Source: Nemertoderma westbladi
Lineage: Eukaryota; Animalia; Xenacoelomorpha
Length of the DNA: 64,000 nt
NCBI GenBank assembly: GCA_032718475.1
Contig: JAUCBJ010001616.1
Span: 1 to 64,000 of the forward strand
Direction: 5' to 3'
Shown here: positions 4,311 to 57,587 of the stretch, piece after piece
Layout: each line of letters opens with the position of its first letter
Position numbering within the stretch: position 1 is the stretch's first letter
Position numbers and translations under genes: made by a program
The notes under the pieces: generated by a model
The model's input: the letters and a program-made list of their open reading frames with translations, nothing else
Databases searched by the model: none
What the model was told of the DNA's origin: nothing

Positions 4311-5144
4311 CCTACCCCGTTCCGTCCCTACCCCGTTCCGTCCCTACCCCGTTCCGTCGCTAACCCGTTCCGTCCCTACCCCGTTCCGTCCCTACCCCGT
4401 TCCGTCTCTACCCAGTTCCGTCTCTACCCAGTTCCGTCCCTACACCGTTCCGTCCCTACCCCGTTCCGTCCCTACCCCGTTCCGTCCCTACCCCGTTCCG
4501 TCCATACCCCATTCCGTCCCTACCCCGTTCCGTCCCTAACCCGTTCCGTCCATAACCCGTTCCGTCCCTACCCCGTTCCGTCCCTACCCCGTTCCGTCCA
4601 TACCCCGTTCCATCCCTACCCCGTTCTGTCCCTACCCCGTTCCGTCCCTACCCCGTTCCGTCCCTACCCTGTTCCGTCCCTACCCCGTTCCGTCCCTACC
4701 CCGTTCCGTCCCTACCCCGTTCTGTCCCTACCCCGTTCCGTCCCTACCCCGTTCCGTCCCTACCCCGTTCCGTCCCTACCCCGTTCTGTCCCTAACCCGT
4801 TCCGTCCCTACCCCGTTCCGTCCCTACCCCGTTCCGTCCCTACCCCGTTCCGTCCCTACCCCGTTCCGTCCCTAACCCGTTCCGTCCATACCCCGTTCCG
4901 TCCCTACCCCGTTCCGTCCCTACCCCGTTCCGTCCATACCCCGTTCCGTCCCTACCCCGTTCCGTCCCTACCCCGTTCCGTCCATACCCCGTTCCGTCCC
5001 TACCCCGTTCTGTCCCTACCCCGTTCCGTCCCTACCCCGTTCCGTCCCTACCCCGTTCCATCCCTACCCCGTTCCGTCCCTAACCCGTTCCGTCCCTACC
5101 CCGTTCCGTCCCTAACCCGTTCCGTCCCTACCCCGTTCCGTCCC
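4311..5144 (-). repeat. 16-bp tandem array (GGGACGGAACGGGGTA on -), about 52 copies
   Basis: Directly visible period-16 repeat with scattered point variants. Confidence 0.97.
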
Positions 5145-5500
5145 CTGTAACATATAAATATAGTAAATATAGTCGAATTGATAAGTAAATAATAAATATA
5201 GTCTATAATTGTGAATAATAGACTATTACTAAATACTTGTAAAATTTTTAATTAATTTTAAACTTATTGCTCCACCTGTATAAAAGAATAAACCTTTTAC
5301 CCCGTTTAGGGGTGCACCTTGAAAAAAAAAAAATAATAATTGTGAATAATGAATATTCATAGTTAACTTACCTAGAATGGATACTAATTACCATTTAGAT
5401 TTACAATAATTAATTAGATTTATAATTATAAAATTATATAAATTCACAGTTTTTATTACAATAAGATCATTTAATATTAATATATAAATTAACCTAAAAT

Positions 5501-6878
5501 TAACCTACCTTCATCACGCAATGTGAGTTAGCGTGATCTTGAATAACCTATCTTCATCACGCAATGTGAGTTAGCGTGATCGTGAATAACCTACCTTCAT
5601 CACGCAATGTGAGTTAGCGTGATCGTGAATAACCTACCTTCATCACGCAATGTGAGTTAGCGTGATCGTGAATAACCTACCTTCATCACGCAATGTGAGT
5701 TAGCGTGATCGTGAATAACCTACCTTCACCACGCAATGTGAGTTAGCGTGATCGTGAATAACCTACCTTCATTACGCAATGTGAGTTAGCGTGATCGTGA
5801 ATAACATACCTTCATCACGCAATGTGAGTTAGCGTGATCGTGAATAACCTACCTTCATCGCGCAATGTGAGTTAGCGTGATCGTGAATAACCTACCTTCA
5901 TCACGCAATGTGAGTTAGCGTGATCGTGAATAACCTACCTTCATCACGCAATGTGAGTTAGCGTGATCGTGAATAACCTACCTTCATCACGCAATGTGAG
6001 TTAGCGTGATCGTGAATAACCTACCTTCATCACGCAATGTGAGTTAGCGTGATCGTGAATAACCTACCTTCATCACGCAATGTGAGTTAGCGTGATCGTG
6101 AATAACCTACCTTCATCACGCAATGTGAGTTAGCGTGATCGTGAATAACCTACCTTCATCACGCAATGTGAGTTAGCGTGATCGTGAATAACCTACCTTC
6201 ATCACGCAATGTGAGTTAGCGTGATCGTGAATAACCTACCTTCATCACGCAATGTGAGTTAGCGTGATCGTGAATAACCTACCTTCACCACACAATGTGA
6301 GTTAGCGTGATCGTGAATAACCTACCTTCATCACGCAATGTGAGTTAGCGTGATCGTGAATAACCTACCTTCATCACGCAATGTGAGTTAGCGTGATCGT
6401 GAATAACCTACCTTCATCACGCAATGTGAGTTAGCGTGATTGTGAATAACCTACCTTCACCACGCAATGTGAGTTAGCGTGATCGTGAATAACCTACCTT
6501 CATCACGCAATGTGAGTTAGCGTGATCGTGAATAACCTACCTTCATCACGCAATGTGAGTTAGCGTGATCGTGAATAACCTACCTTCATCACGCAATGTG
6601 AGTTAGCGTGATCGTGAATAACCTACCTTCACCACGCAATGTGAGTTAGCGTGATCGTGAATAACCTACCTTCATCACGCAATGTGAGTTAGCGTGATCG
6701 TGAATAACCTACCTTCATCACGCAATGTGAGTTAGCGTGATCGTGAATAACATACCTTCATCACGCAATGTGAGTTAGCGTGATCGTGAATAACCTACCT
6801 TCATCGCGCAATGTGAGTTAGCGTGATCGTGAATAACCTACCTTCATCACGCAATGTGAGTTAGCGTGATCGTGAATA
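5501..6878 (-). repeat. 43-bp tandem array = last 37 nt of the CDO exon + GTAGGT donor, about 32 copies
   Basis: Unit on -: TATTCACGATCACGCTAACTCACATTGCGTGATGAAG|GTAGGT. The first copy is the coding end of the exon (IHDHANSHCVMK). Confidence 0.97.
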
Positions 6879-7117
6879 CAGGATCCTTGTCCTTCACTCC
6901 AACACAGAACAATAATGTTGTAGGTCCCGTTACCGGCATCAACTAGGTTCCGAGTGTAACGGTGCTCGTCGAACAAAGCAAACTGCTTCCAGTCCATCTC
7001 GCTACTCCTGTACGCATCCATAATCTCCTTCAAATCGTCAACGTTAACGCGTTCACCCTCGAATATTTCGTGGACTCTGGACAACATTTGATTCCAGTTT
7101 AGCGATAAACAAGTCAT
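6842..7117 (-). CDS. CDO1: Cysteine dioxygenase, first coding exon (92 aa, phase-0 donor)
   Basis: MTCL...FDEHRYTRNLVDAGNGTYNIIVLCWSEGQGSCIHDHANSHCVMK carries the CDO signature YTRNLVD, two Fe-ligand histidines (HDH) and the cross-link Cys. ATG at 7117, AAG|GTAGGT donor at 6841. Downstream exons not identified in the window. Confidence 0.92.
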
Positions 7118-8260
7118 CTCGGTAGAGGTTTCTTTGGCTGAGTATCTTATAACGTCCAGAAAATTAGTTACATAGACAAACCAACGCAAAATGGTTCACT
7201 GTGACAAGGATTGTAAATAAATTACACACATTGGTAGCGGTATTACCGTGGGTAGAAGATAAACTCCCTAGTTATAATAAAAAAACAACTGGTCAGATAA
7301 CAGTTGTAATAAAAATTAATTAACTTCAGTTAGCTAATTTATATTAACAAATTTAACTCATTGCCAGTCGCGCCATCAGTCCTGCTTCCATAATGTTTAA
7401 TTATGTAAAAAAAGTCAGTTGCAAGTTCTGATCACGGCAGTTGTTAATTTGTTGTAACAATATATCGAAGTAAATTCGATATAGTTCCTACATCCTAAGA
7501 AGCCTCAATAGCACGAGGGAAAGGGAGACATGATACAATAAACATATTGTTCATTGATCTATATCTCCCTGCAGCCGCAATGCAAATAAATGGTCGAGTC
7601 CCAAGTGGGCAATAAAATGAGTCCAGAAATAGAATTAGGGCAAGAAGAGATGAACACAGTAGAAATAATATATTTATAACAACTATAAACTATCTCAAGT
7701 ACAACATATCGCCATATGGATTTCAGCAAAGAAATGGAAACCCAAGGTGACATTCATGACGTAACTTGGGAAATTTCCAAGGCATCTCTGGCCATTATTG
7801 GGCGGGCATTGAAATTGGATATGTTACGTACGCCCTTTTTTCTAGCCAATGAATCGTATTACTATATGCCTCTTCCTCTCACTATGGCGACTTACGCGCT
7901 GGCAACAATTCAAGGCAAGGGAGGCAAGTATTATACTCTAAAATAGAGTACAGTGACGATGCCTCAGTCTCTCAAGCGAGGTCCTTTGAAAGCCCTAACA
8001 ACTTTCGGCGAATCATCTGGGTTTGTTCATGATTACTCTGGTAGATAATGCATTACACCATGCATCATGGAAGTACAGTATATGAATAATGTGAGGAATA
8101 GTGCCCATGTGAAGAATTCCCCATAAAGGATTTGTTTTCTAGGGATTAGTTCTGTCTTATAATAACCTATGGTGGGCCTGAGGCTGAGCGGCCAGGTGTG
8201 TTGTTGGTATAGAAACTACTCCAGCCAATTAGATTTGTTTTAACTAGTTTTGTAAAGTCA

Positions 8261-8395
8261 TATGACCCACCTTAATAACCTGTATGACCCACCTTAATAA
8301 CCTGTATGACCCACGTTAATAACCTGTATGACCCACCTTAATAACCTGTATGACCCACCTTAATAACCTGTATGACCCACCTTAATAACCTGTAT
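8261..8395 (-). repeat. 22-bp tandem array (CAGGTTATTAAGGTGGGTCATA on -), 6 copies
   Basis: Units start at 8261, 8283, 8305, 8327, 8349 and 8371. Confidence 0.95.
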
Positions 8396-8779
8396 ATTTT
8401 GACTGACTTCTTTAGATTACATTGTTGACATCGATAATCCGAGGGATCTATCGGATGCGAGATTCTCGATTCTCCATCTCCAGGGGTGTGTTCCACTCTC
8501 ACTATTATTCCAATGCCCGGGGTCCTGATTACAAGTTCTAAAATGCGCTACAGGCCTATCATAACGACAGTTTGAGTAGTATTTTAACAATTAAAACCAA
8601 CAGGGTTGGTGCATGAAAAAATTGTTGCACTAGAAACAATTGAATAAGGGGTATCAAGGTGCCCTGAATCGAATGGTGGGGTGATTTTTTGTAAAAACAC
8701 GTAGAAACGGTGGAAATAGTGGGTTTAAGTAAGCGTGGGAATTCAATTTTGAAAAGCGGCTGTGATTGGCTGCTACAGA

Positions 8780-13595: not shown

Positions 13596-16055
13596 TCTAT
13601 CTTACAATTATTGTGAACGGGCTGGCTATCTTCTATCTTACAATTGTGAACGGGCTGGCTGTCTTCTAACTTACAATTGTGAACGGGCTGGCTATCTTCT
13701 ATCTTACAATTATTGTGAACGGGCTGGCTATCTTCTAACTTACTATTGTGTATGGGCTGGCTATCTTCTATCTTACAATTATTGTGAACGGGCTGGCTAT
13801 CTTCTATCTTACAATTGTGAACGGGCTGGCTATCTTCTATCTTACAATTATTGTGAACGGGCTGGCTATCTTCTATCTTACAATTGTGAACGGGCTGGCT
13901 ATCTTCTATCTTACAATTTGAACGGGCTGGCTATCTTCTATCTTACAATTACTGTGAACGGGCTGGCTATCTTCTATCTTACAATTGTGAACGGGCTGGC
14001 TATCTTCTATCTTACAATTATTGTGAACGGGCTGGCTATCTTCTATCTTACAATTGTGAACGGGCTGGCTATCTTCTATCTTACAATTATTGTGAACGGG
14101 CTGGCTATCTTCTATCTTACAATTGTGAACGGGCTGGCTATCTTCTATCTTACAATTATTGTGAACGGGCTGGCTATCTTCTAACTTACAATTGTGAACG
14201 GGCTGGCTATCTTCTATCTTACAATTATTGTGAACGGGCTGGCTATCTTCTATCTTACAATTGTGAACGGGCTGGCTATCTTCTATCTTACAATTATTGT
14301 GAACCGGCTGGCTATCTTCTATCTTACAATTGTGAACGGGCTGGCTATCTTCTATCTTACAATTGTGAACGGGCTGGCTATCTTCTATCTTACAATTATT
14401 GTGAACGGGATGGCTATCTTCTATCTTACAATTGTGAACGGGCTGGCTATCTTCTATCTTACAATTGTGAACGGGCTGGCTATCTTCTATCTTACAATTA
14501 TTGTGAACGGGCTGGCTATCTTCTATCTTACAATTGTGAACGGGCTGGCTATCTTCTATCTTACAATTGTGAACGGGCTGGCTATCTTCTATCTTACAAT
14601 TATTGTGAACGGGCTGGCTATCTTCTATCTTACAATTGTGAACGGGCTGGCTATCTTCTATCTTACAATTATTGTGAACGGGCTGGCTATCTTCTATCTT
14701 ACAATTGTGAATGAGCTGGCTATCTTCTATCTTACAATTGTGAACGGGCTGGCTATCTTCTATCTTACAATTGTGAACGGGCTGGCTATCTTCTATCTTA
14801 CAATTATTGTGAACGGGCTGGCTATCTTCTATCTTACAATTGTGAACGGGCTGGCTATCTTCTATCTTACAATTATTGTGAACGGGCTGGCTATCTTCTA
14901 TCTTACAATTGTGAACGGGCTGGCTATCTTCTATCTTACAATTGTGAATGGGCTGGCTATCTTCTATCTTACAATTGTGAACGGGCTGGCTATCTTCTAT
15001 CTTACAATTGTGAACGGGCTGGCTATCTTCTATCTTACAATTATTGTGAACGGGCTGGCTATCTTCTATCTTACAATTGTGAACGGGCTGGCTATCTTCT
15101 ATCTTACAATTGTGAACGGGCTGGCTATCTTCTATCTTACAATTATTGTGAACGGGCTGGCTATCTTCTATCTTACAATTGTGAACGGGCTGGCTATCTT
15201 CTATCTTACAATTATTGTGAACGGGCTGGCTATCTTCTATCTTACAATTGTGAACGGGCTGGCTATCTTCTATCTTACAATTGTGAATGGGCTGGCTATC
15301 TTCTATCTTACAATTATTGTGAATGGGCTGGCTATCTTCTAACTTACAATTGTGAACGGGCTGGCTATCTTCTATCATACAATTATTGTGAACGGGCTGG
15401 CTATCTTCTATCTTACAATTATTGTGAACGGGCTGGCTATCTTCTATCTTACAATTGTGAACGGGCTGGCTATCTTCTATCTTACAATTATTGTGAACGG
15501 GCTGGCTATCTTCTATCTTACAATTGTGAACGGGCTGGCTATCTTCTATCTTACAATTATTGTGAACGGGCTGGCTATCTTCTATCTTACAATTACTGTG
15601 AACGGGCTGGCTATCTTCTATCTTACAATTGTGAACGGGCTGGCTATCTTCTAACTTACAATTGTGAATGGGCTGGCTATCTTCTATCTTACAATTGTGA
15701 ACGGGCTGGCTATCTTCTATCTTACAATTATTGTGAACGGGCTGGCTATCTTCTATCTTACAATTGTGAATGGGCTGGCTATCTTCTATCTTACAATTAT
15801 TGTGAACGGGCTGGCTATCTTCTATCTTACAATTGTGAACGGGCTGGCTATCTTCTAACTTACAATTGTGAACGGGCTGGCTATCTTCTAACTTACAATT
15901 GTGAACGGGCTGGATATCTTCTATCTTACAATTATTGTGAACGGGCTGGCTATCTTCTATCTTACAATTGTGAATGGGCTGGCTATCTTCTAACTTACAA
16001 TTGTGAACGGGCTGGATATCTTCTATCTTACAATTATTGTGAACAGGCTGGCTAT
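13596..16055 (-). repeat. Mixed 33/36-bp tandem array (AAGATAGCCAGCCCGTTCACAAT[AAT]TGTAAGATAG on -), about 70 copies
   Basis: Two unit lengths differing by one AAT triplet, interleaved. Confidence 0.97.
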
Positions 16056-16370
16056 TAAGATGATTATTGATCTATGTAATAATTATTACATAAAGATAAC
16101 TCACACTGTTGGTATCTTATAATATATGTTATGTATAAACTATCTTATTATTTTACTTACACCGTATAATAATAATTTCAGCCCTGGTTGTATCCTGTCT
16201 GTATAATATAATTCATATTTTCACAATACGTCAAAACATTTTACTAATTATTGCCACCGTGTGTATCTGGCGAATAATAATAATAATTTATACCGGTTGA
16301 AGTTTAGCACTATGTGTAAAGGATATGAGAACACTGCTACTACTTTAACCACCATTAATTACTACCATTA

Positions 16371-17307
16371 CACCATGTCCCATAATATAATGTCGTAATT
16401 CAGTGACACGGCCCCCCCCCCCTAATTTTTCTACAAATCTTAATGAGATTGCATGAAATTTGAAACAGAGATAGTTCCACCTCCCGACAACTGAGTGGGT
16501 GAGCCAGAATTTTTATTTTTGCTTTCAATCTTCAGCTACAAGCGTTTAAAAACAGTGTCTCCGGCGATATTACACCAGTTGTACTGCAGTTATTCTTCTA
16601 CCTTATAGCAGTTTGTTGGTACCGATGGAAAGCTGACCATGCAAGGATTCCAAATATGTAAAAATATTTGAATTTGGTTGGGAAATAGCTGAGATATGGG
16701 CGTTCGAAAGTTGCATGTATTTTCACCTCCAATGGGCTATTTTATTCTATTTTATAAATACACAGAATTCTGGAATATTTTATTTTGCAAAAAACAGCAG
16801 CGCAAGTACTGACTATCAAGGTATACTAGAGGTAATTGTTTTCCAACGTTTAACTTGCATTTGTATTACTAATGCATAGCTATTTATGAAATAAATAAAA
16901 TATTCCAGAATTCTGTGTATTTATAAAATAGAATAAAATAGCCAAGTGCAGGTGAAAATACATGCAACTTTCGAACGCCCATATCTCAGCTATTTCCCAA
17001 CCAAATTCAAATATTTTTACATATTTGGAATCCTTGCATGGTCAGCTTTCCATTGGTACCAACCAACTGCTATAAGGTAGAAGAATAACTGCAGTACAAC
17101 TGGTGTAATATCGCCGGAGACACTGTTTTTAAACGCTTGTAGCTAAAGATTGAAAGCAAAAATAAAAATTCTGGCTCACCCACTCAGTGGTCGGGAGGTG
17201 GAACTATCTCTGTTTCAAATTTCATGCAATCTCATTAAGATTTGTAGAAAAATTAGGGGGGGGGGGCCGTGTCACTGAATTACGACACTATATTCTGGGA
17301 CATGGTG
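16371..17307. mobile_element. Foldback/MITE-like element with about 410-bp near-perfect inverted arms, TA-flanked
   Basis: TA|CACCATGTCCC...GGGACATGGTG|TA. Arms about 16371-16785 and 16895-17307, with a spacer of about 100 bp. Confidence 0.92.
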
Positions 17308-17398
17308 TAATTAAATGTCAAAAGATCTAAGTTGGTGTTGGTGTAAGGTGTGCAAATATAATATAAACGAGTAAAGTCGGTTATTCACAAAATATCAT

Positions 17399-36251: not shown

Positions 36252-36458
36252 ATGAAAGTACTTTTCGCAATCGCAGCTATACTAATGTTTGCAACCACAT
36301 CTATGGGATACTTCGATGATAATATTATTCTACAACATTGTTGGATGGCATGCGTTACTTACTGTGACCCATATGTGGTGGATTATTGCATCATGTATTG
36401 TTTGAATTCTATTGAAATTAACATTGATGATTATGTCTACAATATTTGCACCGAATAG
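36252..36458 (+). CDS. Small secreted acidic cysteine-rich peptide (68 aa)
   Basis: Signal peptide MKVLFAIAAILMFATTSMG and 6 Cys. ATG directly follows acceptor-like TTCTATTTCAG. AATAAA at 36591. Confidence 0.7.
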   Translation: MKVLFAIAAILMFATTSMGYFDDNIILQHCWMACVTYCDPYVVDYCIMYCLNSIEINIDDYVYNICTE

Positions 36459-39231: not shown

Positions 39232-39499
39232 ATGGAAGATGAAGGAGAGGGGAAGAAAAAGATACGACATGCACGTATCCAATCAGCAAAGAGTACATCA
39301 TCCTACCACTCGAGTTGTTACCCTAGTGAACACCACCTAGCAAAGACGGCCCTTCAGCAAACTAATAGGACGTACGCCTTAGGAGAATATAGTGACGACA
39401 CAACAGCAGTTCATGATGACATATGGAAGGAGACAGTCGGTAAAGAAGGCGATGTTAAACGTCAATGGAGGGAGCAGTGGGGTTACATGGCCAATACCG
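39232..39499 (+). CDS. C2orf50: C2orf50/CIMIP5-like ciliary protein, exon 1
   Basis: ATG at 39232. VHDDIWKETV.KE...RQWREQWGYM resembles the D.LWRE...E.....W..NWSFL motif of C2orf50. G|GTAAGT donor at 39500, phase 1. Confidence 0.7.
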
Positions 39500-40332: not shown

Positions 40333-40544
40333 GACGCCCCACTGAGGAGGAACTTGTGCAGTACAGAATACAACGGGAATCCTTGGCAACACCGTTCTCT
40401 AAGGTGTTCCCGAACACACGGTCCCAGGAGTATGGGTTCCGTACAGCGACGCCTCTCGGGTCCAGGATGATGAATCTACAACGACAATGGAGTTCTGGAT
40501 ACCTCCGTCGGAAAACGGGTCGGGATATTCAGCAGAGCTACTAG
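40333..40544 (+). CDS. C2orf50: C2orf50/CIMIP5-like protein, exon 2 (terminal)
   Basis: Acceptor TTTTCTCTCCAG. Phase matches exon 1 (G|GA). PFSKVFPNTRSQEYGFRTATPLG resembles FSD.VP....Q..G.R..TPLG. Stop TAG ends at 40544. Confidence 0.72.
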
Positions 40545-44027: not shown

Positions 44028-45970
44028 CCCTTTCCAGCCGACTGTATATTTTTGTATACACTGAATTTATTTCACTATGAATTTCATAATTTTAACTAAT
44101 TATAGTTGGTTTCATCCAATTGAGACCCTATCACACTTCCTTTACTTATAAATTACCGATTCTGATTGGATAATTGTAGTAGAAGGCTTCAATGAACGAT
44201 TTTAGATGCTGTGTTTTCAGGTATTGACATGATGACTACTACCTGGCATAGGAAAGATGGTTATTTAAATGCTTTGGCAAAGCTATATTGAGAATTTTGA
44301 TTGGGTATTCCAAATATGGATTGTCCAATGAGATAATAATACTTCCAGGATAAACTTTACAGTACAGGTAGGCTGGTAGTGTTATTGATAAACCACTGTA
44401 TACATTTGTCTACGTTAGGTTTATAAAGTTGGGGAGTAGAAGTGGTGCAGCCACAGTTGGGGAGTAGATGTGGTGCAGCACCGTTGGGGAGTAGATGTGA
44501 TTCAGCCACCGTTTGTGTGATGTGGTGCTTCCACCATTGGGGTGTGTGTAGGCCTAGATGTGGTGCTGCCACCATAGGGGAGTCGATGTTGACCATTGGG
44601 GTGTAGTTGTGGCGAAGCCACCATGGGGAGTAGATGTTGACCATAGGATAGTAGAGGTGATGCAGCCACCATTGTGGATAGATGTGGTGCAGTCGCCATT
44701 GGAGAGTAGATGTGGAACAGCCTCCATTGGGGAGTAGATGTGGCGTAGCCACCATAGGGGAGTAGATGTTGATCCTTGGGCCTTGGGAGTAGATGTGATG
44801 CAGCCACTATTGGGGAGTAGATGTGGCGAAGTCGCCATTGGGCCTTGGGAGTAGATGTGACGCAGCCACCATAGGGGAGTAGATGTGGTACATCCACCAC
44901 CGTAGGGGTGTAGATATGGTGCAGCCACCATTGGAGAGTAAATCTGGCGCACCCACCATTTGGAAGTAGATGTGGTGCAGCCACCATTAATGAGTAGATG
45001 TGGTGCAGCCACCATTGCGGAGTAGATGTGGTGCAGACACCATTGGGGAGTAGATGCTGACCATTGGTGAGTAGATGTGGTGCAGACACCATAGTGGAGT
45101 AGATGTTAACCATTGGGCCTTGGTAGTAGATGTGATTCAGCCACCATTGGGGAGTAGATGTGGTGCAGCCACCATTGATGAGTAGATGTGGTGCAGCCAC
45201 CATTGGGGAGTTGATGCTGACCATTGATGAGTAGATGTGGTGCAGCCACCACAGTGGAGTAGATGCTGAGCATTGGTGAGTAGATATGGTGTAGCCACCA
45301 TATGGAGTAAATGTTGACCATTGGGGATTAGATGTGGTGTAGCCACCATATGGAGTAGATGTTAACCATTGGGCCATGGGAGTAGATGTGATTCAGCCAC
45401 CATTGGGGAGTATATGTGGTGCAGCCACTGTTTGGGAGTAGATGTTGTACACTCACATTATACAGGCAGGGCAGATAGACATACAAACAGTTGAAAAAAG
45501 TCAGTCGAAACTGTTTTTTTCAAACTTTAACAAAACTGACAGAAAAAAACATTCACTGTATAATTCTTCCTTTTTAAGTTTTTTTGTCGCACTGTGTTGC
45601 TTTTAAACAACGTGTGTTGTGAAAACACACAAAATTATAAAATTTTGCCATTTTGGCAAATTTCACAGTATTGACAGCTTTTCATTCCGAAAAAACATAA
45701 TTTAAATTTTTTATAAGAATATACTTTCTATACGATGTATGTACAGTATGTAAGTAAGTACGTACAATCTAGAGTTCGTATACAAAAGTATACATTGGGA
45801 ACATGTTTCATATACCTAACGTATACTTTTGTATACAATAAAAAAAACAACATTGGAAATAATTTTTTGAAAATTTTTTCATCGAAAATTATTATTTGGT
45901 GTATAATTAACCCATTAACAAGACCAACCAATTTTTTTTCCTAAATTAAATTAATTCAGGCCGGAAAGGG
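44028..45970. mobile_element. Non-autonomous piggyBac-like element
   Basis: TTAA|CCCTTTCCAGCC ... GGCCGGAAAGGG|TTAA (11/12 TIR match, TTAA TSD). Confidence 0.8.
44428..45445. repeat. Degenerate about 28-bp minisatellite (CCACCATTGGGGAGTAGATGTGGTGCAG) with shorter variants
   Basis: Visible diverged units inside the piggyBac-like element. Confidence 0.9.
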
Positions 45971-46310: not shown

Positions 46311-48349
46311 TCTTATAGATGACAACTCTAAAATGAGCAGTTGCAGTAACTGTTGCGGATGAAATTTTTTAAATCATCTGAATTGTGAAACTTCAAGACA
46401 ATGGGACACCTTCCTTGGTGAAATCAAATCATTGATGTGATCAAATCAATTTAAAAGCATAATCACACCATTCGTTTCTACTTCAAAATGAGATACATCG
46501 ACCCATTTGAAGACGGCGTGTCCTTCAGTATTTAGTGCTGGAATCTGTTAAGAGGACTGGCTGACTGATTCTGTCCAGCCGTTCGTTGTTGCTGGATATC
46601 TAGGGCGTATTGACTACACGTCATCATCGGGGTCACAGATAAAGAGTTCAGCAGAAGGCATCTGCACCCGCAAATGGAAAGCATTGTCTGTTTTCAACTA
46701 GCTATCCACGATCTGGATATCAGACTAGTAGAGTAGCTCCTTTAACATTTGGAATCTGTGCTGCTCTATGCAGTCCTTGTTGGGCTCTAACAACACAAGA
46801 TCCTTGAAATTAAATGATACATATTATTATACCACAATGTCATGCAGGGTGTCTGTACATTAGGGTGGAGTGAAAAAAAAAATTTTCTTTATTTTTAAGG
46901 GAAGCACTATTTTTCTTATGCCAAATCGGTCTAAACTAACATTGCAAAAAACAATTTTTGATTTTGAAAAATTCTAAGCGGGCCTCACGACACTTGAAAA
47001 TGTACAATGTACAGTGTACATTGTTTTTGTTTTACATTTGGTGCTGTATGTATATTTTTATTGTGGCACCTCATTACTTAAAGCCTCGCTCTACTGAGCT
47101 ATTCCGAAACTGTAACCTACACTGCACCCGTATACAGAGATGTAGAATCTTGTTTTATAAATATAGAATCTATAACGGTAATTTTCTTAAATTAAAGTTG
47201 AGATTTCTTCTGTAAGTAGCGGCTGGTTTTTCTGTTAGTGATTGGTAAATATAACTTTTATTCCGAAAACAACTTGAATCGAATTTTACAAAATTAGAAT
47301 ATTATAGTATTATAAATAAAGAATCTATTTATATACAAGTAGATTCAAAATCTCTGTATTCTCTGGATGTGGATCTCTTTATGGTTATTATTCCAGAATA
47401 TTGCACTTTTGCCATGGGATCTTATTGACAAAACTCAGCTCGATTCTGCACCTCTGCAACTTAAAGCAAGTCGGACACTGATATCACCCGGTGAGCAGCT
47501 TGTTAATCAAATTTGCGTACTATGGCAACCTACAGGTTTGAACAAAATATATGACCTGACCAATCTATAACTTCCCTTTCCCGGTTTCAGACTTGAAAAT
47601 ATCGTCGAACATGGAAGATGTATCAGTGCGGCTCAGTTTATTATTATAGGCGGCTTTTATTCTGTGTCGACTAGCATTTGAAATTTGTACCACTGTACCC
47701 GATTGCACTGTACCCGACTGTACAGGCTGATGATAGTATGCATGAATAAGGGTGGGGTAACTACAAATAATAACAATTTAATTATTATTAACAAATAATC
47801 TATTTATGACAGATGTAGTGCGCTATTATATTTAAAATTTAATTAATGATTTATATATTTAAGTCATGGTGTTAGCTGTATATTGTTTTTCTACTGTAAG
47901 TATCAACCGAAACATAGACAAATTTTCTTATCAGCGGTATCATCAGGCAGAAGGCCTACTAACAGCGGTTATTGTACAGTTCAGTTTGTTAAAAGGAATT
48001 ATGGCTGAATCTGAGAGTTACTGAGCATGGTGCTCAATTTGTGAAATTGTATTTTTTGTACACGCTACATAATTTGAGCACTAACCACACATCTACAACG
48101 CAATATAGCACTAGTTATTCAACCCGCGGATTAAGTGAGTTCGCCTGTTCGATGTCAAAGCAGTGACATGGGAGCAATGTGGTAATGACATGCATATTAT
48201 CGACAATGTCATGATAAAACAATGACATTTCAAAGGGCGCTACATCGATAAAGGTGGTATATAGTAACGTACAAGGACACCATGTGCTGTTCTCAAACCC
48301 TCCAACAAATAGATTTTCATACATGAATATATAGCGCCACAAAGGAATG

Positions 48350-51300
48350 ATTTAAAATAAATTATTAGATTTTTTGAATATAAACTTTGAATCTTTGATT
48401 TTCTCGATTATCTTATTCTGAAAGATCGTGTCTCCAGCCCATAAAAAATCGTCTACATGGATTATAATCAGGCCACACAATTTTGCTTTAGATTGGAGGA
48501 AAAATACTGCTTGGTCGAAACAAGACTTTTGTAGGCCCAATTTTTCAAACTCGCTAACTACTTGAAGATACCACATTCTCCCTGACTCGTTTAGTCCATA
48601 TACACTGTGATTTAGTCTCCATATATTGTTGGTGTTTGCCTCTTTTGGTGGTCGGATGAATACATCTCACTCCATGGGCATCCCCTGTAGATAGGCACTT
48701 CTAATGTCCAACATGTTTAATTTCCAGCTAAATGTAGATATCAAGACCAAGCAGATCCTGAGCGAATCCTTATAGCATGTTGGTGAATCCATTCTAGAAG
48801 TTCGAATATCTTCAAAGCCCTTTGCGCAAAGTCTTGCTTTAAGAATTGCAACTCCCCCAAGTGTTTTTTCTGTTAAAACCCACTTTGTATTGATGGTATG
48901 CTATCCATTATCTGGAACTTCACTATAAGTTTTCATTTCTACCCATTTCCGTAGTTCCTCCTGCTTTGCTTGATCAAAATTTTTCGTCTTATCATTGTCT
49001 TTATTAATCAGAACTACTGTATCTTGCTATTGAAGTTCTTCATTTGGTTGGTCCACTGTGGTTACATTTTCGATGTTGTTTGCGGTGGCTATATTGTCTG
49101 ATTGGATTTGTCCTAATTCGTTATCTATGTTTTCATATTCTTTCTGATTATTGACTTCCTGTTGAACTCTCCACTCGGCAATATCGTCGCGAAAACTTTT
49201 GCTGCATTGTGTTTCATCACCCTTTTCAACGTTCATTAGATGCCAGTGTTTTCCGGTTGCCTTTCATGCTCTACCCAGAACAGTTACTAATTTCCACTCT
49301 CCTGATTCCTTCTCTCGATATTCTATATTGTCTCTTGTATGGGGAAGTTTCACTTTTCCTTTAGGAATTCCACTGGTTCCTGTTGATGATTGTTTATTAT
49401 AATTAATCGCAGGTTCGTGATCATCGACACTGGTGACTTCTTTAGATTCATTATCTTCATCACCTGAATCGACCATTACAGTGGTCTGCCGATGGTTATT
49501 ATTGGCTGAGTTTTGTTGAGTTTCACTCATTGTTTGCTTTTCTTTTATAGGAATTAAACAACATGGATGGACACGAATATATAGACCACCATGCTTTACC
49601 AAGACCAGTTTTTCATCTGTTCCCAATAATTTAGCAGGACCATTCCAGGAGGTAGAGTTTATGCGTTTATAATAAAATATACATTATCACCTGTACTGAA
49701 AATTTGGGAAGCAAACGATCTAGTTTTTCTGTTTAGAGCCCATCGTAGTTTCTCGCAACTTTCTTGCTGTATAAAGGACTCCCGAGCGCAGTGGAGAGCA
49801 GTTAAATTTTCTCTGACCATGTTGCTAATAATGTGTTCATTATTGGCAGGCAACCTATTGGTTGATGTTTGGGGAAAATTAGGGTTTCTACCGAATACCA
49901 GTATGTTCGGTGTGAATCCATAAACATTAATCAGTGAGTTTTCCTGGTGATCCGAATATACGTATCCAATACTCTAACAGTTTGTTGATTATTGTCTCCA
50001 TTAATTTATTCGTAATCGCTACAGCTTGGGCAAGTCTTGTAACATGGTCGATCACATATAGTATATATATACCTGGTCGAAAGTTTGTCAAATCCATCGC
50101 CACAGTTTAATTGAATGTTGAAGCTAAAGGGAATCCAATGGCCGGTTTTAAGGGAGGGCGTTTAAATCTTTGGCAAATCTCGCAATAATTACTGATTTCT
50201 TTGATTACACCCTCAACATCTTTATGAGAATGACCAGCCTTCACGATTAGGTCCAGCATTCTGTGTGGTGGGGGGTGTGCGAATTGTTTGTGTAGCTTGA
50301 GTATCATCTTCTTTAACTCTAGTTTATTGAGATCGGCCAGAGGGCTAGTGAAAAGTACCTGTTTAATGTTGTCAATTATCACATTGGGAGGCCTAGTCAA
50401 TGGTAGACAATAATGAACTGTAGTTTAAATGACTAAGTTGAATCGGTCCCCAAGTAACTCAAGTGTGTCTGTATTAAAATCAATCTTGCCATTGCCTCTT
50501 TTAATGGACTCTCTGGAACGGAACATCATAGTTTACTATATTTACCCCAAATGTAATCTTTTGTTACCCAGATGAATTGGGATAATTGCTTTCACTGTTG
50601 ATAAATATCCGCACCATCTCCGAATTTGAACCAGATATGACTCTCTTCAAACCTAATATCTCTCTTGTCACCACAACTTAGTGAATCATAATAACAATTA
50701 AACCAAGTTTTACCTGTTAATGTGGTCGAACAACCTGTGTCCAATATGGTGTAAATAATTGTTTCTGCCAATAAACAATCTGTTGTAATTATATGCCATT
50801 CAATGAATATAACTATGTTTGTATCTTCACTTTCCATATATCATGTCTGATAATTTTCCCCACTTCTCTGAATATTCTCTGGGCAGTTTGATTCATAATG
50901 GTAGATGAAAAGGCAAATGCTGCATTGATTGGGTCGACCTTGTTGGTCAGTCGTGTTTAATCTCGAATTATTCTTGTTTGAACCACCAAGGCACTGGTTT
51001 CTGTTAAAATTTCGGTAACCTGTATTTAAATTACCTCGCCCGTTGAATAGTCTTCGGTTAACCATGCCTCCTGCATGGGTAGTGCGTGCACCTCCTCCAT
51101 ATGAACCATAATTCCTCCCTCGGTTTGATCGTATGTCGTGATTAAATCCTCTACTTTTATTACCGTAATATAATTCATTATCATCTTGATATTCTTCCCA
51201 CATATCATTTCCTTCCCATGTCTCATTCTGGTTCTCATTGATTGTAGCAAAAATTGGCTTAACCACGACTTTATTTTTATCTGAGTTTCACTACTGCAGT

Positions 51301-52301
51301 CACTGGACTTTTTGGAGCTTAACTCCGCAAACATTTTTAGAATTTGAGTTCTCATGTTTTTATAAGTTAGTTCTCCAACAGTCGCCAATGCTAACTGACT
51401 CTTAGTTTCATCGAGATTGGCACTTTTCAATAAATGATAGGCCAACACACCATCAGGAAGATTCATGTTATAAGATTTACATACTGTATATATGAACATT
51501 CCGGTCAAACTTAACCAAATAGTTTGTAAGCATGTGATCATTTGGTCATTTAAAGGTACATAATAATTGATCATATGCATGGAATGCTCGAATTGCTTTA
51601 TCTTTTAAGTATAAAGTGTTTAACTTATCTATTATTTGTTCAACTCCATCTTCCTTCTTTAGATCTTCCCGAGATATCTCCAAAACGGCTTCCCGAGCTT
51701 CACCTTGTAGTAGGAACACAGTAGGCCCTTGCCTACCTTCGCCATATCTGTAGCATCCTGCCATCTTTTGATCTCCTGCACCCAATTCACATAGGAGGTA
51801 TTGTCGCGGAGAGGTGGTGGATTTTTCACGTTTACCAGTATCATGTTTGAGGGGTACTCCGCCATCACTTGAATTAGTTGCGTTGTCTTGCTTCAGTAGT
51901 CCTTGGTTATATCCAAATTTTAATGTAACAAATTTTAATGTAATAAGTTAGGTACCGATACCCAGTCCGTCGTAATCGTAATACAGGCTGACAGTCCTGA
52001 GTTTAGTAATAATGCAGTCCTATTATTACTGGTATGTTGTTAGGTAGCCCAGATTCTGGTACTACAGACACCCAGAGTTTATTAACGCTCTGCTACCATG
52101 CTAATTGAGTATAAAGGAATATCATGTTTGTTTCTAATTCAGTATTTATTATAAATATAATTGCGAACAGACAGACTAGACCCTGATACAGGTATCTATT
52201 ACCTACCACACCTACCGGACTCATTCACCCTAGCACGTATTACAGTATTCTATTCATAGTACATAATTCAAAGTTCCCTCTCACCTCAGTATACATTAAC
52301 A
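48350..52301 (-). mobile_element. Decayed Ty1/copia LTR retrotransposon of GalEa type; 5' LTR about 52099-52301, 3' end missing
   Basis: Order on -: gag with CSIC..IYH...C knuckle, protease ILDTGCS, integrase HKQFAH...CEIC, RT (KARLCAKGFE, LDIRSAYLQG, HVDDF). PBS TGGTAGCAGAGC at 52087-52098 abuts a TG...CA segment containing AATAAA. Confidence 0.85.
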
Positions 52302-52507: not shown

Positions 52508-52937
52508 ATGCTACCAGAATTATTAATGGAAGTTGTTAATAAACAGAAATCAAGTAACGATCTTAATGCCTCAGAAAAAATACCTGACAGAGACAAAACT
52601 ATAAATGAAGATATCACAATCGGAACACAACTAAAAACAATGATGGAAAATAATGGAGTAACTTGTGGATCGTTAATGACAGAACAGACTGCAAAGCCGC
52701 ACAAAAATCGAGTACAAAAATCCAAAAATATAATGAAACTGGTATTACGATTCGTCTTAGCAGTAATAACCCTTCCAATTTATATAATTATTTGCGGAAG
52801 TGCAATACATTTGGTTGAAAGTGGGTCGCCATCGGCAAAGGAGATCATAGAGAAATCAATCAATTCCATATCCGACAAACTGGTTCGCTTTGCAGTGGAA
52901 GCGCAAGGTCAAAGCATTGGAAGTGTGAAAATTAGAA
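52508..52937 (+). CDS. Two-pore-domain K+ channel (K2P/KCNK family), exon 1
   Basis: N-terminus, TM1 (FVLAVITLPIYIIICGSAIHLVE) and cap start. A|GTAAGT donor at 52938, phase 1, in frame with exon 2. Confidence 0.8.
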
Positions 52938-55900
52938 GTAAGTGTTAGTAGAAACTATTAGAAGTAAGTGTTAGTAGAAACTATTATAAGTAAGTGTTAG
53001 TAGAAACTATTAGAAGTAAGTGTTAGTAGAAAAGAAACTATTAGAAGTAAGTGTTAGTAGAAACTATTAGAAGTAAGTGTTAGTAGAAACTATTAGAAGT
53101 AAGTGTTAGTAGAAACTAATTAGAAGTAAGTGTTAGTAGAAACTATTAGAAGTAAGTGTTAGTAGAAACTATTAGAAGTAAGTGTTAGTAGAAACTATTA
53201 GAAGTAAGTGTTAGTAGAAACTATTTGAAGTAAGTGTTAATATAAACTATTAGAAGTATTGTTAGTAGAAACTATTAGAAGTAGTGTTAGTAGAAACTAT
53301 TAGAAGTAAGTGATAGTATAAACTATTAGAAGTAAGTGTTAGTAGAAACTATTAGAAGTAGTGTTAGTAGAAACTATTAGAAGTAAGTGTTATTGGAAAC
53401 GATTAGAAGTAAGAGTTAGTAGAAACTATTAGAAGTAAGTTTTAGAAGAAACTATTAGAAGTAAGTGTTAGTAGAAACTATTTGAAGTAAGTGTTAGTAG
53501 AAACTATTAGAAGCAGTGTTAGTAGAAACTATTAGAAGTATATGTTAGTAGAAACTATTAGAAGTAAGTGTTAGTAGAAACTATTAGAAGTAGTGTTAGT
53601 AGAAACTATTAGAAGTAAGTGTTATTGGAAACGATTAGAAGTAAGAGTTAGTAGAAACTATTAGAAGCAGTGTTAGTAGAAACTATTAGAAGTATATGTT
53701 AGTAGAAACTATTAGAAGTAAGTGTTAGTAGAAACTATTAGAAGTAGTGTTAGTAGAAACTATTAGAAGTATATGTTAGTAGAAACTATTAGAAGTAAGT
53801 GTTAGTAGAAACTATTAGAAGTAGTGTTAGTAGAAACTCTTAGAAGTAAGTGTTATTGGAAACGATTAGAAGTAAGAGTTAGTAGAAACTATTAGAAGCA
53901 GTGTTAGTAGAAACTATTAGAAGTAGTGTTAGTAGAAACTCTTAGAAGTAGTGTTAGTAGAAACTATTAGAAGTAAGTGTTAGTAGAAACAATTAGAAGT
54001 AGTGTTAGTAGAAACTATTAGAAGTATATGTTAGTAGAAACTATTACAAGTATATGTTAGTAGAAACTATTAGAAGTAAGTGATAGTAGAAACTATTAGA
54101 AGTAGTGTTAGTAGAAACTATTAGAAGTATATGTTAGTAGAAACTATTAGAAGTAAGTGTTAGTAGAAACTATTAGAAGTAGTGTTAGTAGAAACTATTA
54201 GAAGTAAGTGTTATTGGAAACGATTAGAAGTAAGAGTTAGTAGAAACTATTAGAAGCAGTGTTAGTAGAAACTATTAGAAGTAAGTGTTAGTAGAAACTA
54301 TTAGAAGTAGTGTTAGTAGAAACTATTAGAAGTAAGTGTTAGTAGAAACTATTAGAAGTAGTGTTAGTAGAAACTATTAGAAGTATATGTTAGTAGAAAC
54401 TATTAGAAGTAAGTGTTAGTAGAAACTATTAGAAGCAGTGTTAGTAGAAACTATTAGAAGTATATGTTAGTAGAAACTATTAGAAGTAAGTGTTAGTAGA
54501 AACTATTAGAAGTAGTGTTAGTAGAAACTATTAGAAGTGAGTGTTATTGGAAACGATTAGAAGTAAGAGTTAGTAGAAACTATTAGAAGCAGTGTTAGTA
54601 GAAACTATTAGAAGTATATGTTAGTAGAAACTATTAGAAGTAGTGTTAGTAGAAACTATTAGAAGTATATGTTAGTAGAAACTATTAGAAGTAAGTGTTA
54701 GTAGAAACTATTAGAAGTAAGTGTTAGTAGAAACTATTAGAAGTAAGTGTTAGTAGAAACTATTAGAAGTAAGTGTTTGTAGAAACTATTAGAAGTAAGT
54801 GTTAGTAGAAACTATTAGAAGTAGTGTTAGTAGAAACTATTAGAAGTAAGTGTTAGTAGAAACTATTAGAAGTATATGTTAGTAGAAACTATTAGAAGTA
54901 AGTGTTAGTAGAAACTATTAGAAGTAGTGTTAGTTAGAAGTATATGTTAGTAGAAACTATTAGAAGTAAGTGTTAGTAGAAACTATTATAAGTAGTGTTA
55001 GTAGAAACTTTTAGAAGTAAGTGTTAGTAGAAACGATTAGAAGTAAGTGTTTGTAGAAACTATTAGAAGTAAGTGTTAGTATAAACTATTAGAAGTACGT
55101 GTTAGTAGAAACTATTAGAAGTAAGTGTTAGTAGAAACTATTTGAAGTTAAGTGTTAGTAGAAACTATTAGAAGCAGTGTTAGTAGAAACTATTAGAAGT
55201 ATATGTTAGTAGAAACTATTAGAAGTAAGTGTTAGTAGAAACTATTTGAAGTAAGTGTTAGTAGAAACTATTAGAAGTAAGAGTTAGTAGAAACTATTAG
55301 AAGTAAGTTTTAGTAGAAACTATTAGAAGTAAGTGTTAGCAGAAACTATTAGAAGTAAGTGTTAGTAGAAACTATTAGAAGTAAGTGTTAGTATAAACTA
55401 TTAGAAGTACGTGTTAGCAGAAACTATTAGAAGTAAGTGTTAGTAGAAACTATTAGAAGTAAGAGTTAGTAGAAACTATTAGAAGTTAGTTTTAGTAGAA
55501 ACTATTAGAAGTAAGTGTTAGCAGAAACTATTAGAAGTAGTGTTAGTAGAAACTATTAGAAGTAAGAGTTAGTAGAAACTATTCGAAGTAAGTGTTAGTA
55601 GAAACTATTTGAAGTAAGTGTTAGTAGAAACTATTAGAAGTAAGAGTTAGTAGAAACTATTACAAGTAAGTTTTAGTAGAAACTATTAGAAGTAAGTGTT
55701 AGCAGAAACTATTAGAAGTACGTGTTAGCAGAAACTATTAGAAGTAAGTGTTAGTAGAAACTATTAGAAGTAAGAGTTAGTAGAAACTATTAGAAGTAAG
55801 TTTTAGTAGAAACTATTAGAAGTAAGTGTTAGCAGAAACTATTAGAAGTAAGTGTTAGCAGAAACTATTAGAAGTAAGTGTTAGTAGAAACTATTAGAAG

Positions 55901-56149
55901 TAGTGTTAGTCGAAACTATTAGAAGTACGTGTTAGTAGAAACTCTTAGAAGTATATGTTAGTAGAAACTATTAGAAGTAAGTGTTAGTAGAAACTATTAG
56001 AAGTAAGTGTTAGTAGAAACTATTAGAAGCAGTGTTAGTAGAAACTATTAGAAGTATATGTTAGTAGAAACTATTAGAAGTAGTGTTAGTAGAAACTATT
56101 AGAAGTACGTGTTAGTAGAAACTCTTAGAAGTAAGTGTTAGTAGAAACT
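52931..56149 (+). repeat. 26-bp (and 25-bp variant) tandem array ATTAGAA|GTAAGTGTTAGTAGAAACT, about 125 copies
   Basis: The first copy is the exon 1/intron 1 junction of the K2P gene. Confidence 0.97.
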
Positions 56150-56482
56150 TTACTAGAAGAGTAGTAGAGAGATGTCTGAAGAAAACAATACGTTTTTTAG
56201 TAAGTGTAGTAGAAGAGAGAATGAAAAGTGTGAATACCGCAAATTAAAAAACAATTTGAGTTAATATTCCAAATATATTTATAACAAACTTGAATAAACA
56301 TTAATTACCATTTAATTAAACTGCTACCATTAATTATCTTGCCAGTATCAGTACATCAAGTGTACTACACCAAAGCCAGAGATACTTAACTCAATTTACT
56401 GATTATCTACGGGAGCGTTCTGTAGTTAATTAGTAATTGATGTATCCGGTTTATGGACGCTGAATAATATTATTGAGCTAGA

Positions 56483-56854
56483 CCATGGAATACTAAATAT
56501 AGACGGAACCGCATTAGTGTTATTTTTTCGGCCCCGAAATTTTTTTCAATAAAATGGTAGTATATGCCATAGAAACCTCAGAAAAAAATTTTTGAAAAAA
56601 TTTGACCGGAGCGTTTCCATGGAAACCGGGCAAACATAAAATTTCTAGGTTTTGTCATGAATTAATTATTTTTTGCAACTACTACCCTATTTATTTTTAT
56701 CCTATTTATTTTTATTTCTAGCACAGGTAACTATAGCATAGCAACGAGGTAAAATATATATTTTTTATTTGTATTTTCATTTTTCATTTTTTATTTGTAT
56801 TTTTATTTGTATTAGTATTAGTATTTGTATTTATCTATATTTAGTATTCCATGG
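56483..56854. mobile_element. MITE with 21-bp TIR (CCATGGAATACTAAATATAGA) in K2P intron 1
   Basis: Perfect inverted termini. Flanks CTAGA/CTGGA may be an imperfect 5-bp TSD. Confidence 0.8.
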
Positions 56855-57403
56855 CTGGACCCATTTGAACCCACGGTAGAAAGATATCCTATATACATAT
56901 ATATATCTTGTATCCATTATTGCACGTTTGTATTAGTCAATTAATATTACCAGTATGCTGTTTTATGTACTAATAATACCGCTGTAAACTAATAACTGTT
57001 AATATATCGGACTGGTAACTTAACTTTATTTTGCGAATTTAATTTGAAATATTTTTTCAAAATTTAACCATCTTATAATTGGGGATCTTGAAAATGTATG
57101 ACAAGGACCAATTAATAAGAATTCAAGTATATGGTACAAAACAGTAATTTTTGATATAATTAATTAATTATATTATATTGTTATACTTTATTTTAATCAA
57201 TTTTTATTTCAACTAATTTTATATTAATTCATTTTATTTTAAATAATTTTATTTCATATAGTTTTATTTTAATTCATTTTATATTAAGTTATTTGTTATT
57301 ATTTTAATTAATTTTATTTCATATAATTTTATTTAAATTAATTTAATAATAACTTATTTTTTATTATTTTAATTAATTATATACATTTAAATTAATTTCC
57401 CAG

Positions 57404-57526
57404 ACACGGCAATTGAAATTAGAAGGATTGTTATTGATGTTGAAGGCTATCGAGAACTTCATAAAAATCTACACGACAGCTGGCAAGAAAGTTTTTGGTA
57501 TATATTTGAAGTAATAACAACAATTG
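57404..57526 (+). CDS. K2P channel exon 2 (not in the ORF track)
   Basis: Acceptor TTTCCCAG. Translates (N)TAIEIRRIVIDVEGYRELHKNLHDSWQESFWYIFEVITTI(G), 123 nt, phase 1-1. Donor GTTAGA. Confidence 0.88.
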
Positions 57527-57587
57527 GTTAGACACTGTTATATATTTGAAGTAATAACAACAATTGGTTAGACACTGTTATATATTT
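57499..57587 (+). repeat. 40-bp direct duplication spanning the K2P exon-2 donor
   Basis: TATATATTTGAAGTAATAACAACAATTG|GTTAGACACTGT x2, followed by TATATATTT. Confidence 0.95.

Follow-up and report, generated by a model that had tools for sequence, protein, structure and literature searches.

Splice donors as first units of tandem arrays in a 64,000-nt stretch of the Nemertoderma westbladi genome

Genes and tandem arrays of the window

The window analysed here is a single 64,000-nt contig stretch, picked post hoc for its donor-array pattern. It holds the first coding exon of a cysteine dioxygenase (CDO) gene, an ADAM10-like gene, a C2orf50/LLC1-like gene and a predicted two-pore potassium channel (K2P) gene, together with tandem arrays (n = 12) that make up 21% of its length (Table 1). 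Arrays were detected with Tandem Repeats Finder (TRF), and their copy numbers and lengths rest on the assembly.

Table 1. Gene features and repeats of the window (a slash marks an exon/intron junction)
Feature	Position	Strand	Basis and remarks
16-bp × 52 array, G-rich	4311–5144	-	CDO intron 1, directly after AG; donor-like GTAGGG per unit
Separate exact 11-bp duplication	5486–5507	-	Starts at +2 of last CDO donor copy
43-bp × 32 array	5501–6878	-	TRF; unit of 35–37 exon nt + 6–8 intron nt with AAG/GTAGGT
CDO coding exon 1, 92 codons	6842–7117	-	Pfam CDO_I, E 7e-33
22-bp × 6 array	8261–8395	-	~1.1 kb upstream of CDO start codon; begins at end of candidate 148-nt exon (8390–8537)
33/36-bp × 72 array	13596–16055	-	1.3 kb downstream of ADAM10-like stop
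33-bp × 32 in-frame coding array (11 residues)	19254–20305	-	Within single-ORF ADAM10-like gene, just before protease domain
C2orf50/LLC1-like exon 1	39232–39499	+	Pfam LLC1, E 5.5e-7; strong donor CCG/GTAAGT, array-free
C2orf50/LLC1-like exon 2	40333–40544	+	Open spliced frame; TAG at 40542–40544
37-bp × 55 array	40513–42563	+	TRF; first unit holds last ten codons + stop codon of LLC1-like gene
K2P exon 1, predicted	52508–52937	+	Open spliced frame, profile alignment; donor GAA/GTAAGT
26-bp × 125 array	52931–56149	+	TRF, split into 125 units; unit of 7 exon nt + 19 intron nt
K2P exon 2, ending in first pore loop (TTI-G)	57404–57526	+	Homology
40-bp × 2.2 duplication	57499–57587	+	TRF; 28 exon nt + 12 intron nt
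K2P exon 3	57954–58624	+	Pfam Ion_trans_2, E 9e-15

The protein of CDO exon 1 is 50–57% identical to eight CDO proteins, and CDO transcript contigs reach 5′ to at least 7198–7207. A tblastn search of the window with eight homologues recovered only this exon and its copies among the matches listed, and the start of exon 2 had no match in the window; intron 1, longer than 6.8 kb, extends past the array, and the next exon lies beyond the window. The 25 codons that follow the 16-bp array were considered as the last CDO exon and rejected, with no Pfam match and no alignment. K2P exon 3 has 11 K2P homologues at 29–37% identity, and the spliced model scored 91 bits in a profile alignment that crosses the exon 1 donor, compared with 67 when exon 3 was used by itself; exon 1 by itself gave E 0.04. 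The exon 2 donor splits the pore loop (TTI-G/YG), with homologues matching on both sides. Run X5 contained no K2P transcript contig, and a run search with the K2P sequence listed no RNA run; neither shows that the transcript is absent. In the C2orf50/LLC1-like gene, exon 2 matched LLC1 weakly but collinearly (residues 13–49 of 69 versus profile positions 61–99 of 119, E 0.13), and a homologue search with exon 1 found none. A separate Atlas search with exon 2 returned only borderline clusters of sperm/cilia microtubule-inner proteins.

At three exon ends, those of CDO exon 1 and K2P exons 1 and 2, the end of the exon and its GT donor form the first unit, in gene direction, of a head-to-tail array of 2 to 125 copies according to TRF and the gene models, as the preliminary description had stated. 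Its count is also upheld: three of the four donors in the window carry an array, the C2orf50/LLC1-like donor (39499) being the array-free exception, and none of the three acceptors does. Its term ‘verified’ fits the CDO donor, the one RNA-verified donor of the three, but is too strong for the K2P donors, which are supported by homology (exon 2) or by an open frame and profile alignment (exon 1). The three arrays are donor-spanning ‘mirage’ minisatellites, the unit of each spanning an exon/intron boundary of its host gene. The CDO exon ends at 6842 and the 43-bp array starts across this point; 20 of its 32 units are identical and the donor hexamer is kept in 29 of 32. A perfect GTAAGT is kept in 63 of 125 copies at K2P exon 1, and the splice signal in both copies at K2P exon 2.

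The units appear to have no shared origin. The longest word common to array units is 9 nt, a length equalled or exceeded in 112 of 300 shuffles, which broadly bears out the earlier statement that the units share no sequence, except that a variant of the 37-mer (28 of 55 copies) has 12 nt in common with the 26-mer. The units copy local gene sequence and are related neither to each other nor to an element end, as one satellite family or a transposon-derived satellite would be. An element end common to the arrays behind the word TAGAAACTA was rejected, with one occurrence outside the arrays. Exon GC content was likewise rejected as a cause, because AT dominates in two of the three donor arrays (GC 0.27 and 0.22).

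Five of the 12 arrays touch coding sequence and all five are protein-neutral: three lie at donors, one over a stop codon and one in frame; the last two had escaped the preliminary description. The remaining seven have no contact with any verified gene edge. Among these are the 16-, 22- and 33/36-bp arrays, which the preliminary description had added to the junction arrays on account of a nearby AG and donor-like ends; they are tied to no verified junction, and an AG lies at or within 4–8 nt of a random point 32–46% of the time. In a weighted score, the donor-like 9-mers of the 16-mer and the 22-mer exceed 98.6% and 99.5% of random windows, respectively, and that of the 33/36-mer does not stand out (0.29). 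The occurrence of strong donor-like words in two arrays gave a Fisher p of 0.017 over the nine non-donor arrays and of 0.48 over the six that had not been flagged earlier. No splice-site link was found for the 33/36-bp array, and the 16-mer array is skipped by the CDO RNA seen. The candidate exon beside the 22-bp array is open over 48 codons. Pfam and Atlas searches with it found nothing, and its six other hits are weak (E no better than 7.5e-5); the two of them that were inspected are unrelated repeat proteins. It could still be a non-coding exon.

Splicing across the arrays and short-read support

In runs X4 and X5, which come from different samples and studies, the spliced CDO contigs run from the first donor straight into exon 2 (depth 1196 in X5), and transcript-type depth is zero across 6790–6837; splicing was read from assembled contigs, which drop rare isoforms. 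By frame check, use of any downstream CDO donor would lead to a stop by codon 100. The CDO unit contains AG/GT, and no unit-to-unit intron was seen. At K2P, the downstream donors (all 11 listed for exon 1, and the second of exon 2) either fall out of frame or follow a stop codon, and the introns have their own acceptors.

The short-read contigs also bear on whether the repeats could be assembly or sequencing artefacts. The contigs of runs X1 and X3, which share a sample, and of X2, from a different study, all end at 57528 and resume at 57558. A genuine 40-bp duplication would force a 31-mer graph to break at precisely these points, and hand arithmetic gives about two copies in all three runs. 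A 73-nt loop contig of the 43-bp repeat has a depth of 164 and 244 versus 19 and 14 in the flank in two studies, i.e., ~8.6 and 17 times the flank in two samples, depth being no measure of copy number. The 43- and 40-bp repeats are not assembly errors, because they are present in short-read contigs of two studies, and the variants among units are patterned. This largely refutes an artefact for the 43- and 40-bp arrays and makes one hardly tenable overall; array lengths and copy numbers, including those of the 26-bp array, come from the assembly.

Origin and persistence of the donor arrays

Under a uniform null (12 arrays, summed period 357 nt, collapsed axis of 50,975 nt), an array is expected at a given donor with a probability of 0.007. 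Hits at three or more of four donors then have P = 1.4e-6, and none of 400,000 simulations reached three of four, in a window that was chosen post hoc; for two of four donors, a hand calculation at the same rate gives ~3e-4. Since placement at donors is non-random inside the window, a bias of arrays toward exon edges is plausible within it.

These probabilities weigh against the reading that arrays are born uniformly in a minisatellite-rich genome, that those at donors merely survive, and that the window is an extreme draw. Much of the window would suit such a reading, namely its high array content, the seven arrays away from verified gene edges, the array-free donor and the three array-free acceptors, the location of two of the three cases within one gene (K2P), and the selection of the window for the pattern itself. 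However, duplications are stacked at the same donors, and lancelets have several such genes per species (PMC3087553, PMC3902484, available sections), so that we regard an absence of targeting as rather unlikely. A further proposal, an RNA-linked process at the 5′ splice site (R-loops, a polymerase that pauses where U1 binds, or reverse transcriptase (RT) jumping on pre-mRNA), draws on the contrast between donors and acceptors, on arrays that extend away from the exon in the same direction as transcription, and on the strong donor-like words of the 16- and 22-mer arrays with the Fisher values given above. It is improbable nonetheless: the register to GT is not fixed (7/19, 28/12 and 35/8 exon/intron nt), no unit contains an exon-exon junction, the stop-codon-spanning and in-frame arrays arise without a donor, and an acceptor-side mirage has been published for BflGb6 (PMC3087553/PMC3902484, available sections). 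For the junction-targeted process put forward in the preliminary description, non-random placement at donors is supported within the window; its RT template-jumping variant is disfavoured, because no unit edge coincides with GT in any donor array and the exon/intron split differs from array to array.

U1 telescripting is the suppression of premature polyadenylation by U1 snRNP. The arrays might accordingly be selected as U1 landing pads that curb premature polyadenylation, or reinforce exon definition, where introns are full of transposons, another suggestion of the preliminary description. The well-kept CDO donor hexamer would agree with such selection, as would the length of CDO intron 1, the LINE inside it and the five AATAAA within the 5.5 kb seen. 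Yet the CDO hexamer shows no better conservation than the other unit positions (0.5 versus 0.27 variant cells per position), and in the unit of K2P exon 1 variation peaks at the donor hexamer (14.3 versus 3.5 elsewhere), half of the copies being without GTAAGT. Poly(A) hexamers do not fit either: K2P intron 2 has neither AATAAA nor ATTAAA, and the array-free C2orf50-like intron has both. The depth ratios hint, roughly, at array lengths that differ between individuals, and two arrays, the stop-codon-spanning one and the in-frame one, involve no donor at all. Selection for U1 sites is accordingly disfavoured and very unlikely.

The arrays are probably neutral mirages, in which an exon end and its donor were copied by ordinary DNA slippage and unequal exchange and persist because the first donor is used. 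A segment of 13–43 bp over an exon end would initially be duplicated as DNA, with short direct repeats on either side, seemingly more often at exon 3′ edges than elsewhere. The marks of DNA duplication speak for this origin: a 9-nt direct repeat at the ends of the 40-bp duplication, the 26-bp unit, which is itself a diverged 13-nt dimer (9/13 identity; 0.3% of shuffles), and the second, 11-bp duplication at the CDO donor. Exact 9–25-bp duplications outside the arrays number 11 in 50,618 bases, the one at the CDO donor included. Less in favour of this origin, the ends of the CDO array overlap by only 2 nt, without clear microhomology. Because the spliceosome would take the most upstream donor, the mRNA would be unchanged and the copies intronic, an outcome observed for CDO, described in the literature for F7 and for lancelet genes, and predicted for K2P. 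The anatomy of the arrays suggests that purifying selection would clear coding duplications but spare those that span a donor or a stop codon or that keep the reading frame. Surviving arrays would then grow, shrink and homogenise like VNTRs while decoy donors decay; the K2P exon 1 copies are eroded, with donor-weakening variants over-represented among the high-copy ones, and the CDO array, with 29 of 32 intact, does not show decay.

A survival filter alone cannot lift donor arrays above the intron background (0.007 expected, three of four seen), so a bias at birth is needed. We tentatively extend the neutral reading, as a possibility rather than an expectation, to a mutational hotspot, coupled to transcription or chromatin, through which germline duplication would strike the 3′ edges of coding exons, donors as well as stop codons, at tens of times the background rate, with decoys then actively eroded by selection, here and in other minisatellite-rich animals. 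Mirages would then be a genome-wide mutational class and not scattered oddities.

Comparison with known systems

The structure is already known, and the present arrays contribute little in themselves; the interest would lie in the rate of arrays at exon edges. A genome in which most donors of a window lie in arrays would allow a direct test of whether duplication is targeted to exon edges; first-donor choice could be tested in a non-mammal with as many as 124 copies in competition, and the duplication route to intron gain could be tested as well. Donor arrays can also mislead gene prediction and read mapping.

The preliminary description knew of no named system of this kind, but lancelet mirages and F7-type donor VNTRs are on record. 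A further relative is the tandem repeat of dual-specific AGGT sites, described for UBC and VCX3A together with intron gain by tandem duplication (PMC10809524, available sections). There, too, splice signals are reiterated in a tandem repeat and splicing hides the expansion from the protein. In that type, a single site plays both splicing roles, donor and acceptor, and the length of the intron is a multiple of that of the unit, whereas here an intron that already exists is simply made longer by the array; at CDO and K2P, no intron was found that equals a whole number of units spliced from unit to unit. Human splicing-associated repeats are listed in PMC10078293, in the available parts of which no junction-spanning test was found.

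The 37-bp VNTR of human F7 intron 7 has counterparts in CBS intron 13, interferon-inducible 6-16, lamin B2 and PDGF (PMC1557585, available sections). As in our arrays, the first unit spans the junction, identical pseudo-donors follow, and the most upstream donor is used; the F7 unit of 4 exon nt and 33 intron nt resembles that of K2P exon 1. The human loci differ in being isolated in a large genome, with 5–26 copies and without an enrichment claim in the text available. CBS and 6-16 also use two decoys, and donor scanning was demonstrated in mammalian cells, another host than the present one (PMC1557585).

Lancelet ‘mirages’ are described in Adh3, troponin C, the globins BflGb6 and BflGb9, and PGBD5 (PMC3087553, PMC3902484, available sections; Adh3 and troponin C are taken via these papers). 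They show length instability, reported to be somatic for Adh3, and their mechanism and origin are stated there to be unclear; no exon-edge enrichment test for mirages was found in the literature searched. In lancelets as in our window, a boundary is copied in tandem while normal splicing is retained, units are unrelated (10–160 bp in lancelets), and several genes per genome are affected, including two exons of one gene (PGBD5 there). The present case comes from another animal, is accompanied by a stop-codon-spanning array, involves donors only, whereas both boundaries are affected in lancelets, and reaches 125 copies, compared with 2–7 in the lancelet globin and PGBD5 cases.

Tandem arrays at exon/intron junctions

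As the preliminary description had reported, the exon end and its GT donor form the first unit of a tandem array at three junctions in this stretch of animal DNA. In the cysteine dioxygenase (CDO) gene, 57% identical to an oyster protein, the 43-bp unit comprises the last 35 nt of exon 1 and 8 intron nt and is present in 32 copies, 20 of them identical. In the two-pore potassium channel (K2P) gene on the plus strand, which shares 29–37% identity with channels of insects and mammals, a 26-bp unit made of 7 nt from exon 1, which ends at 52937, and 19 intron nt occurs 125 times; at exon 2, whose end at 57526 falls within the first pore loop, the duplicated segment consists of 28 exon nt and 12 intron nt (TRF). 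The spliced K2P model retains a single open frame, and its score against an 11-homologue profile is 91 bits, versus 67 for exon 3 alone; since exon 1 alone matches this profile weakly (E 0.04), its donor is a predicted one. At 39499, the strong LLC1/C2orf50-like donor lacks an array, which upholds the exception already recognized, and arrays span none of the three acceptors.

Raw data support two of the three arrays (40-bp and 43-bp) well as real. In runs X1 and X3, which share a sample, and in X2, which comes from another study, the short-read contigs stop at 57528 and resume at 57558, by hand the last and first unique 31-mers given the 40-bp duplication, and depth in the duplication bin is consistent with about two copies. 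A closed-loop 73-nt contig of the 43-bp CDO unit was recovered from X1 and X2 at depths of 164 and 244 versus 19 and 14 in the flanks, contig depth not being copy number. One sample may be the assembly's own source; the two studies are concordant.

Contigs of X4 and X5, runs from two samples with a type guessed as DNA, match CDO exon 1 from 7198 or 7207 to 6840 and then exit the window, from which exon 2 is absent. Their loose end, translated by hand, reads VLSGTLKETL and fits homologues past the HCFMK motif (e.g., VLRGELTETL in the CDO homologue P0008). The contigs hold a single copy of the exon end, and the two extra letters are a GT with which exon 2 also begins; the first CDO donor is therefore used, a choice that is well supported in this one gene. 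Every later donor would introduce a stop by codon 100. Depth over 6790–6837 was zero in X4 and X5, though X5 exon depth was 1196; contigs lose rare forms, so a downstream donor may have minor use. A YAG/GTAAGT word at 5371, 130 nt behind the array and one of two on the minus strand, resembles a recursive splice site or a cryptic donor.

Features located in the window
Feature	Position	Strand	Description
CDO exon 1	7117-6842	-	Pfam CDO_I; C-terminal residues HCVMK
Possible 148-nt exon upstream of CDO	8390-8537	-	TTTTAG acceptor, 48 open codons, CAG/GT
ADAM10-like single ORF	17399-20923	-	1174 codons stop to stop; reprolysin and disintegrin domains
LINE endonuclease/reverse transcriptase ORF	15-3395	+	Unbroken, 1126 codons; antisense within CDO intron 1
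Foldback element	16367-17311		419-nt arms, 98% complementary, 107-nt spacer; adjoins ADAM10-like stop, downstream
372-bp element	56483-56854		Lies in K2P intron 1; its ends are perfect 21-nt inverted repeats
Decayed copia-like element	about 48100-51950	-
ORF of 525 codons	26178-27755	-	Low complexity; no Pfam match
Short six-cysteine ORF	36253-36458	+	Signal-peptide-like start, acceptor-like site ahead; no Pfam match
34-, 24- and degenerate 28-bp arrays	29109-30104, 31006-31093, 44428-45445		No donor word or gene edge near

Other arrays and mobile elements

Twelve minisatellite-type arrays with periods of 16–43 make up 21% of the window (TRF, leaving out rows with period <16, low score or AT-rich low complexity), which also contains retroelements and high-copy inverted-repeat elements. 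The 34-, 24- and 28-bp arrays are the ordinary background for judging donor arrays. The 16-, 22- and 33/36-bp arrays had been proposed as further donor arrays, a reading that was not confirmed: none lies at a verified junction, and 32–46% of random points have an AG equally close. Scored with donor weights, the words in the 16-mer and 22-mer beat 98.6% and 99.5% of random windows, and the 33/36-mer has no comparably strong word; Fisher p was 0.017 over the nine other arrays and 0.48 over the six not originally picked. The RNA seen skips the 16-mer array, which lies behind an AG within CDO intron 1, and the 22-mer array begins where the possible 148-nt exon ends, for which homology support was not found. 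Such arrays may be traces of exons that are non-coding or dead, or they may be G-rich repeats.

A 37-bp array (55 copies; 40513–42563, plus strand) begins within the final ten codons of the LLC1/C2orf50-like gene, where a weak collinear Pfam match puts the LLC1 family end, and spans the stop codon; it is the stop-codon counterpart of the lancelet "mirages", minisatellites that copy an exon/intron boundary. The 12 nt TAGTAGAAACTA are common to the 26-mer (52931–56149) and a variant in 28 of the 55 copies of the 37-mer, 10 kb apart, a sharing reached in 1 of 300 shuffles (unit variants lie outside the shuffle model) that may reflect convergence or conversion between arrays. The ADAM10-like gene, possibly a retrogene, carries a 33-bp array in frame, encoding 32 Arg/Ser-rich 11-residue repeats directly before the protease domain. 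Five of the 12 arrays touch coding DNA, which makes up 12% of the window length after array collapse (p 0.01), and all five keep the protein readable, therefore bearing the mark of a survival filter. Because arrays can span a stop codon or lie in frame, a donor is not needed for seeding one.

The 372-bp element is a member of a high-copy MITE-like family: its contig depth runs into the thousands, and the same ends flank other inserts in further contigs. Several decayed RTE-type copies lie elsewhere in the window, a 21-bp repeat (three copies) lies 350 nt downstream of the stop of the 525-codon ORF, and a hairpin followed by CTAG near 36630–36662 resembles a Helitron end.

Apparent excess at donors and probable origin of the units

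Under random placement of the 12 units, the chance that one of them covers a given donor is 0.007, giving p = 1.4e-6 for three of four donors (0 of 400,000 simulations), or 1.9e-5 with eight donors assumed. Since this null is uniform, the window was picked for the pattern from a very large scan and two of the three arrays sit in one gene, the excess can be called credible but not established. A literature search poor in subscription papers found no genome-wide enrichment test of such arrays in print.

By their sequence, the junction-array units look like DNA duplications. The 40-mer has a 9-nt direct repeat at its ends, the 26-mer contains a 13-nt dimer (9/13 identity; 0.3% of shuffles) with a relic unit copy directly behind its array, and the CDO array has an end overlap of only 2 nt. 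At the CDO donor lies a further, separate duplication of 11 bp, one of only 11 short exact duplications of this kind across 50.6 kb; array edges are inherently unstable, and it is not independent evidence. Reverse-transcriptase template jumping at the 5' splice site had been suggested in the preliminary description, and a cut or template jump there is argued against by the unit edges, none of which coincides with the GT in any junction array. Selection for U1 sites had also been suggested; in the K2P 26-bp array variation is highest in the donor hexamer (14.3 vs 3.5 variant cells per position; 1.8 vs 1.5 distinct changes), which counts against it, and in a weak test on four introns or parts the occurrence of poly(A) hexamers did not follow that of the arrays. 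As to selection against decoys (later donor copies inside an array), this variability only hints, because copies are not independent; 29 of 32 CDO decoys are intact, as expected of a young homogeneous array. Units would arise as DNA-level duplications near exon ends, and a survival filter would keep those harmless to the protein, whether donor-spanning, stop-codon-spanning or in-frame. Because such a filter accounts for survival, not for numbers above the intron background, we infer a local birth bias that would raise array numbers at exon edges.

Published counterparts

The donor arrays belong to an already known kind of structure, contrary to the initial view that no named system of this kind existed. 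The most upstream donor is used in human F7, with CBS, 6-16, lamin B2 and PDGF listed as similar (PMC1557585), and dual-site repeats are a related phenomenon (PMC10809524). Lancelet mirages, their origin called unclear, occur in several genes with normal splicing and unstable length (PMC3087553, PMC3902484); they span both exon boundaries, whereas the junction arrays in the window span donors only (0/3 acceptors).
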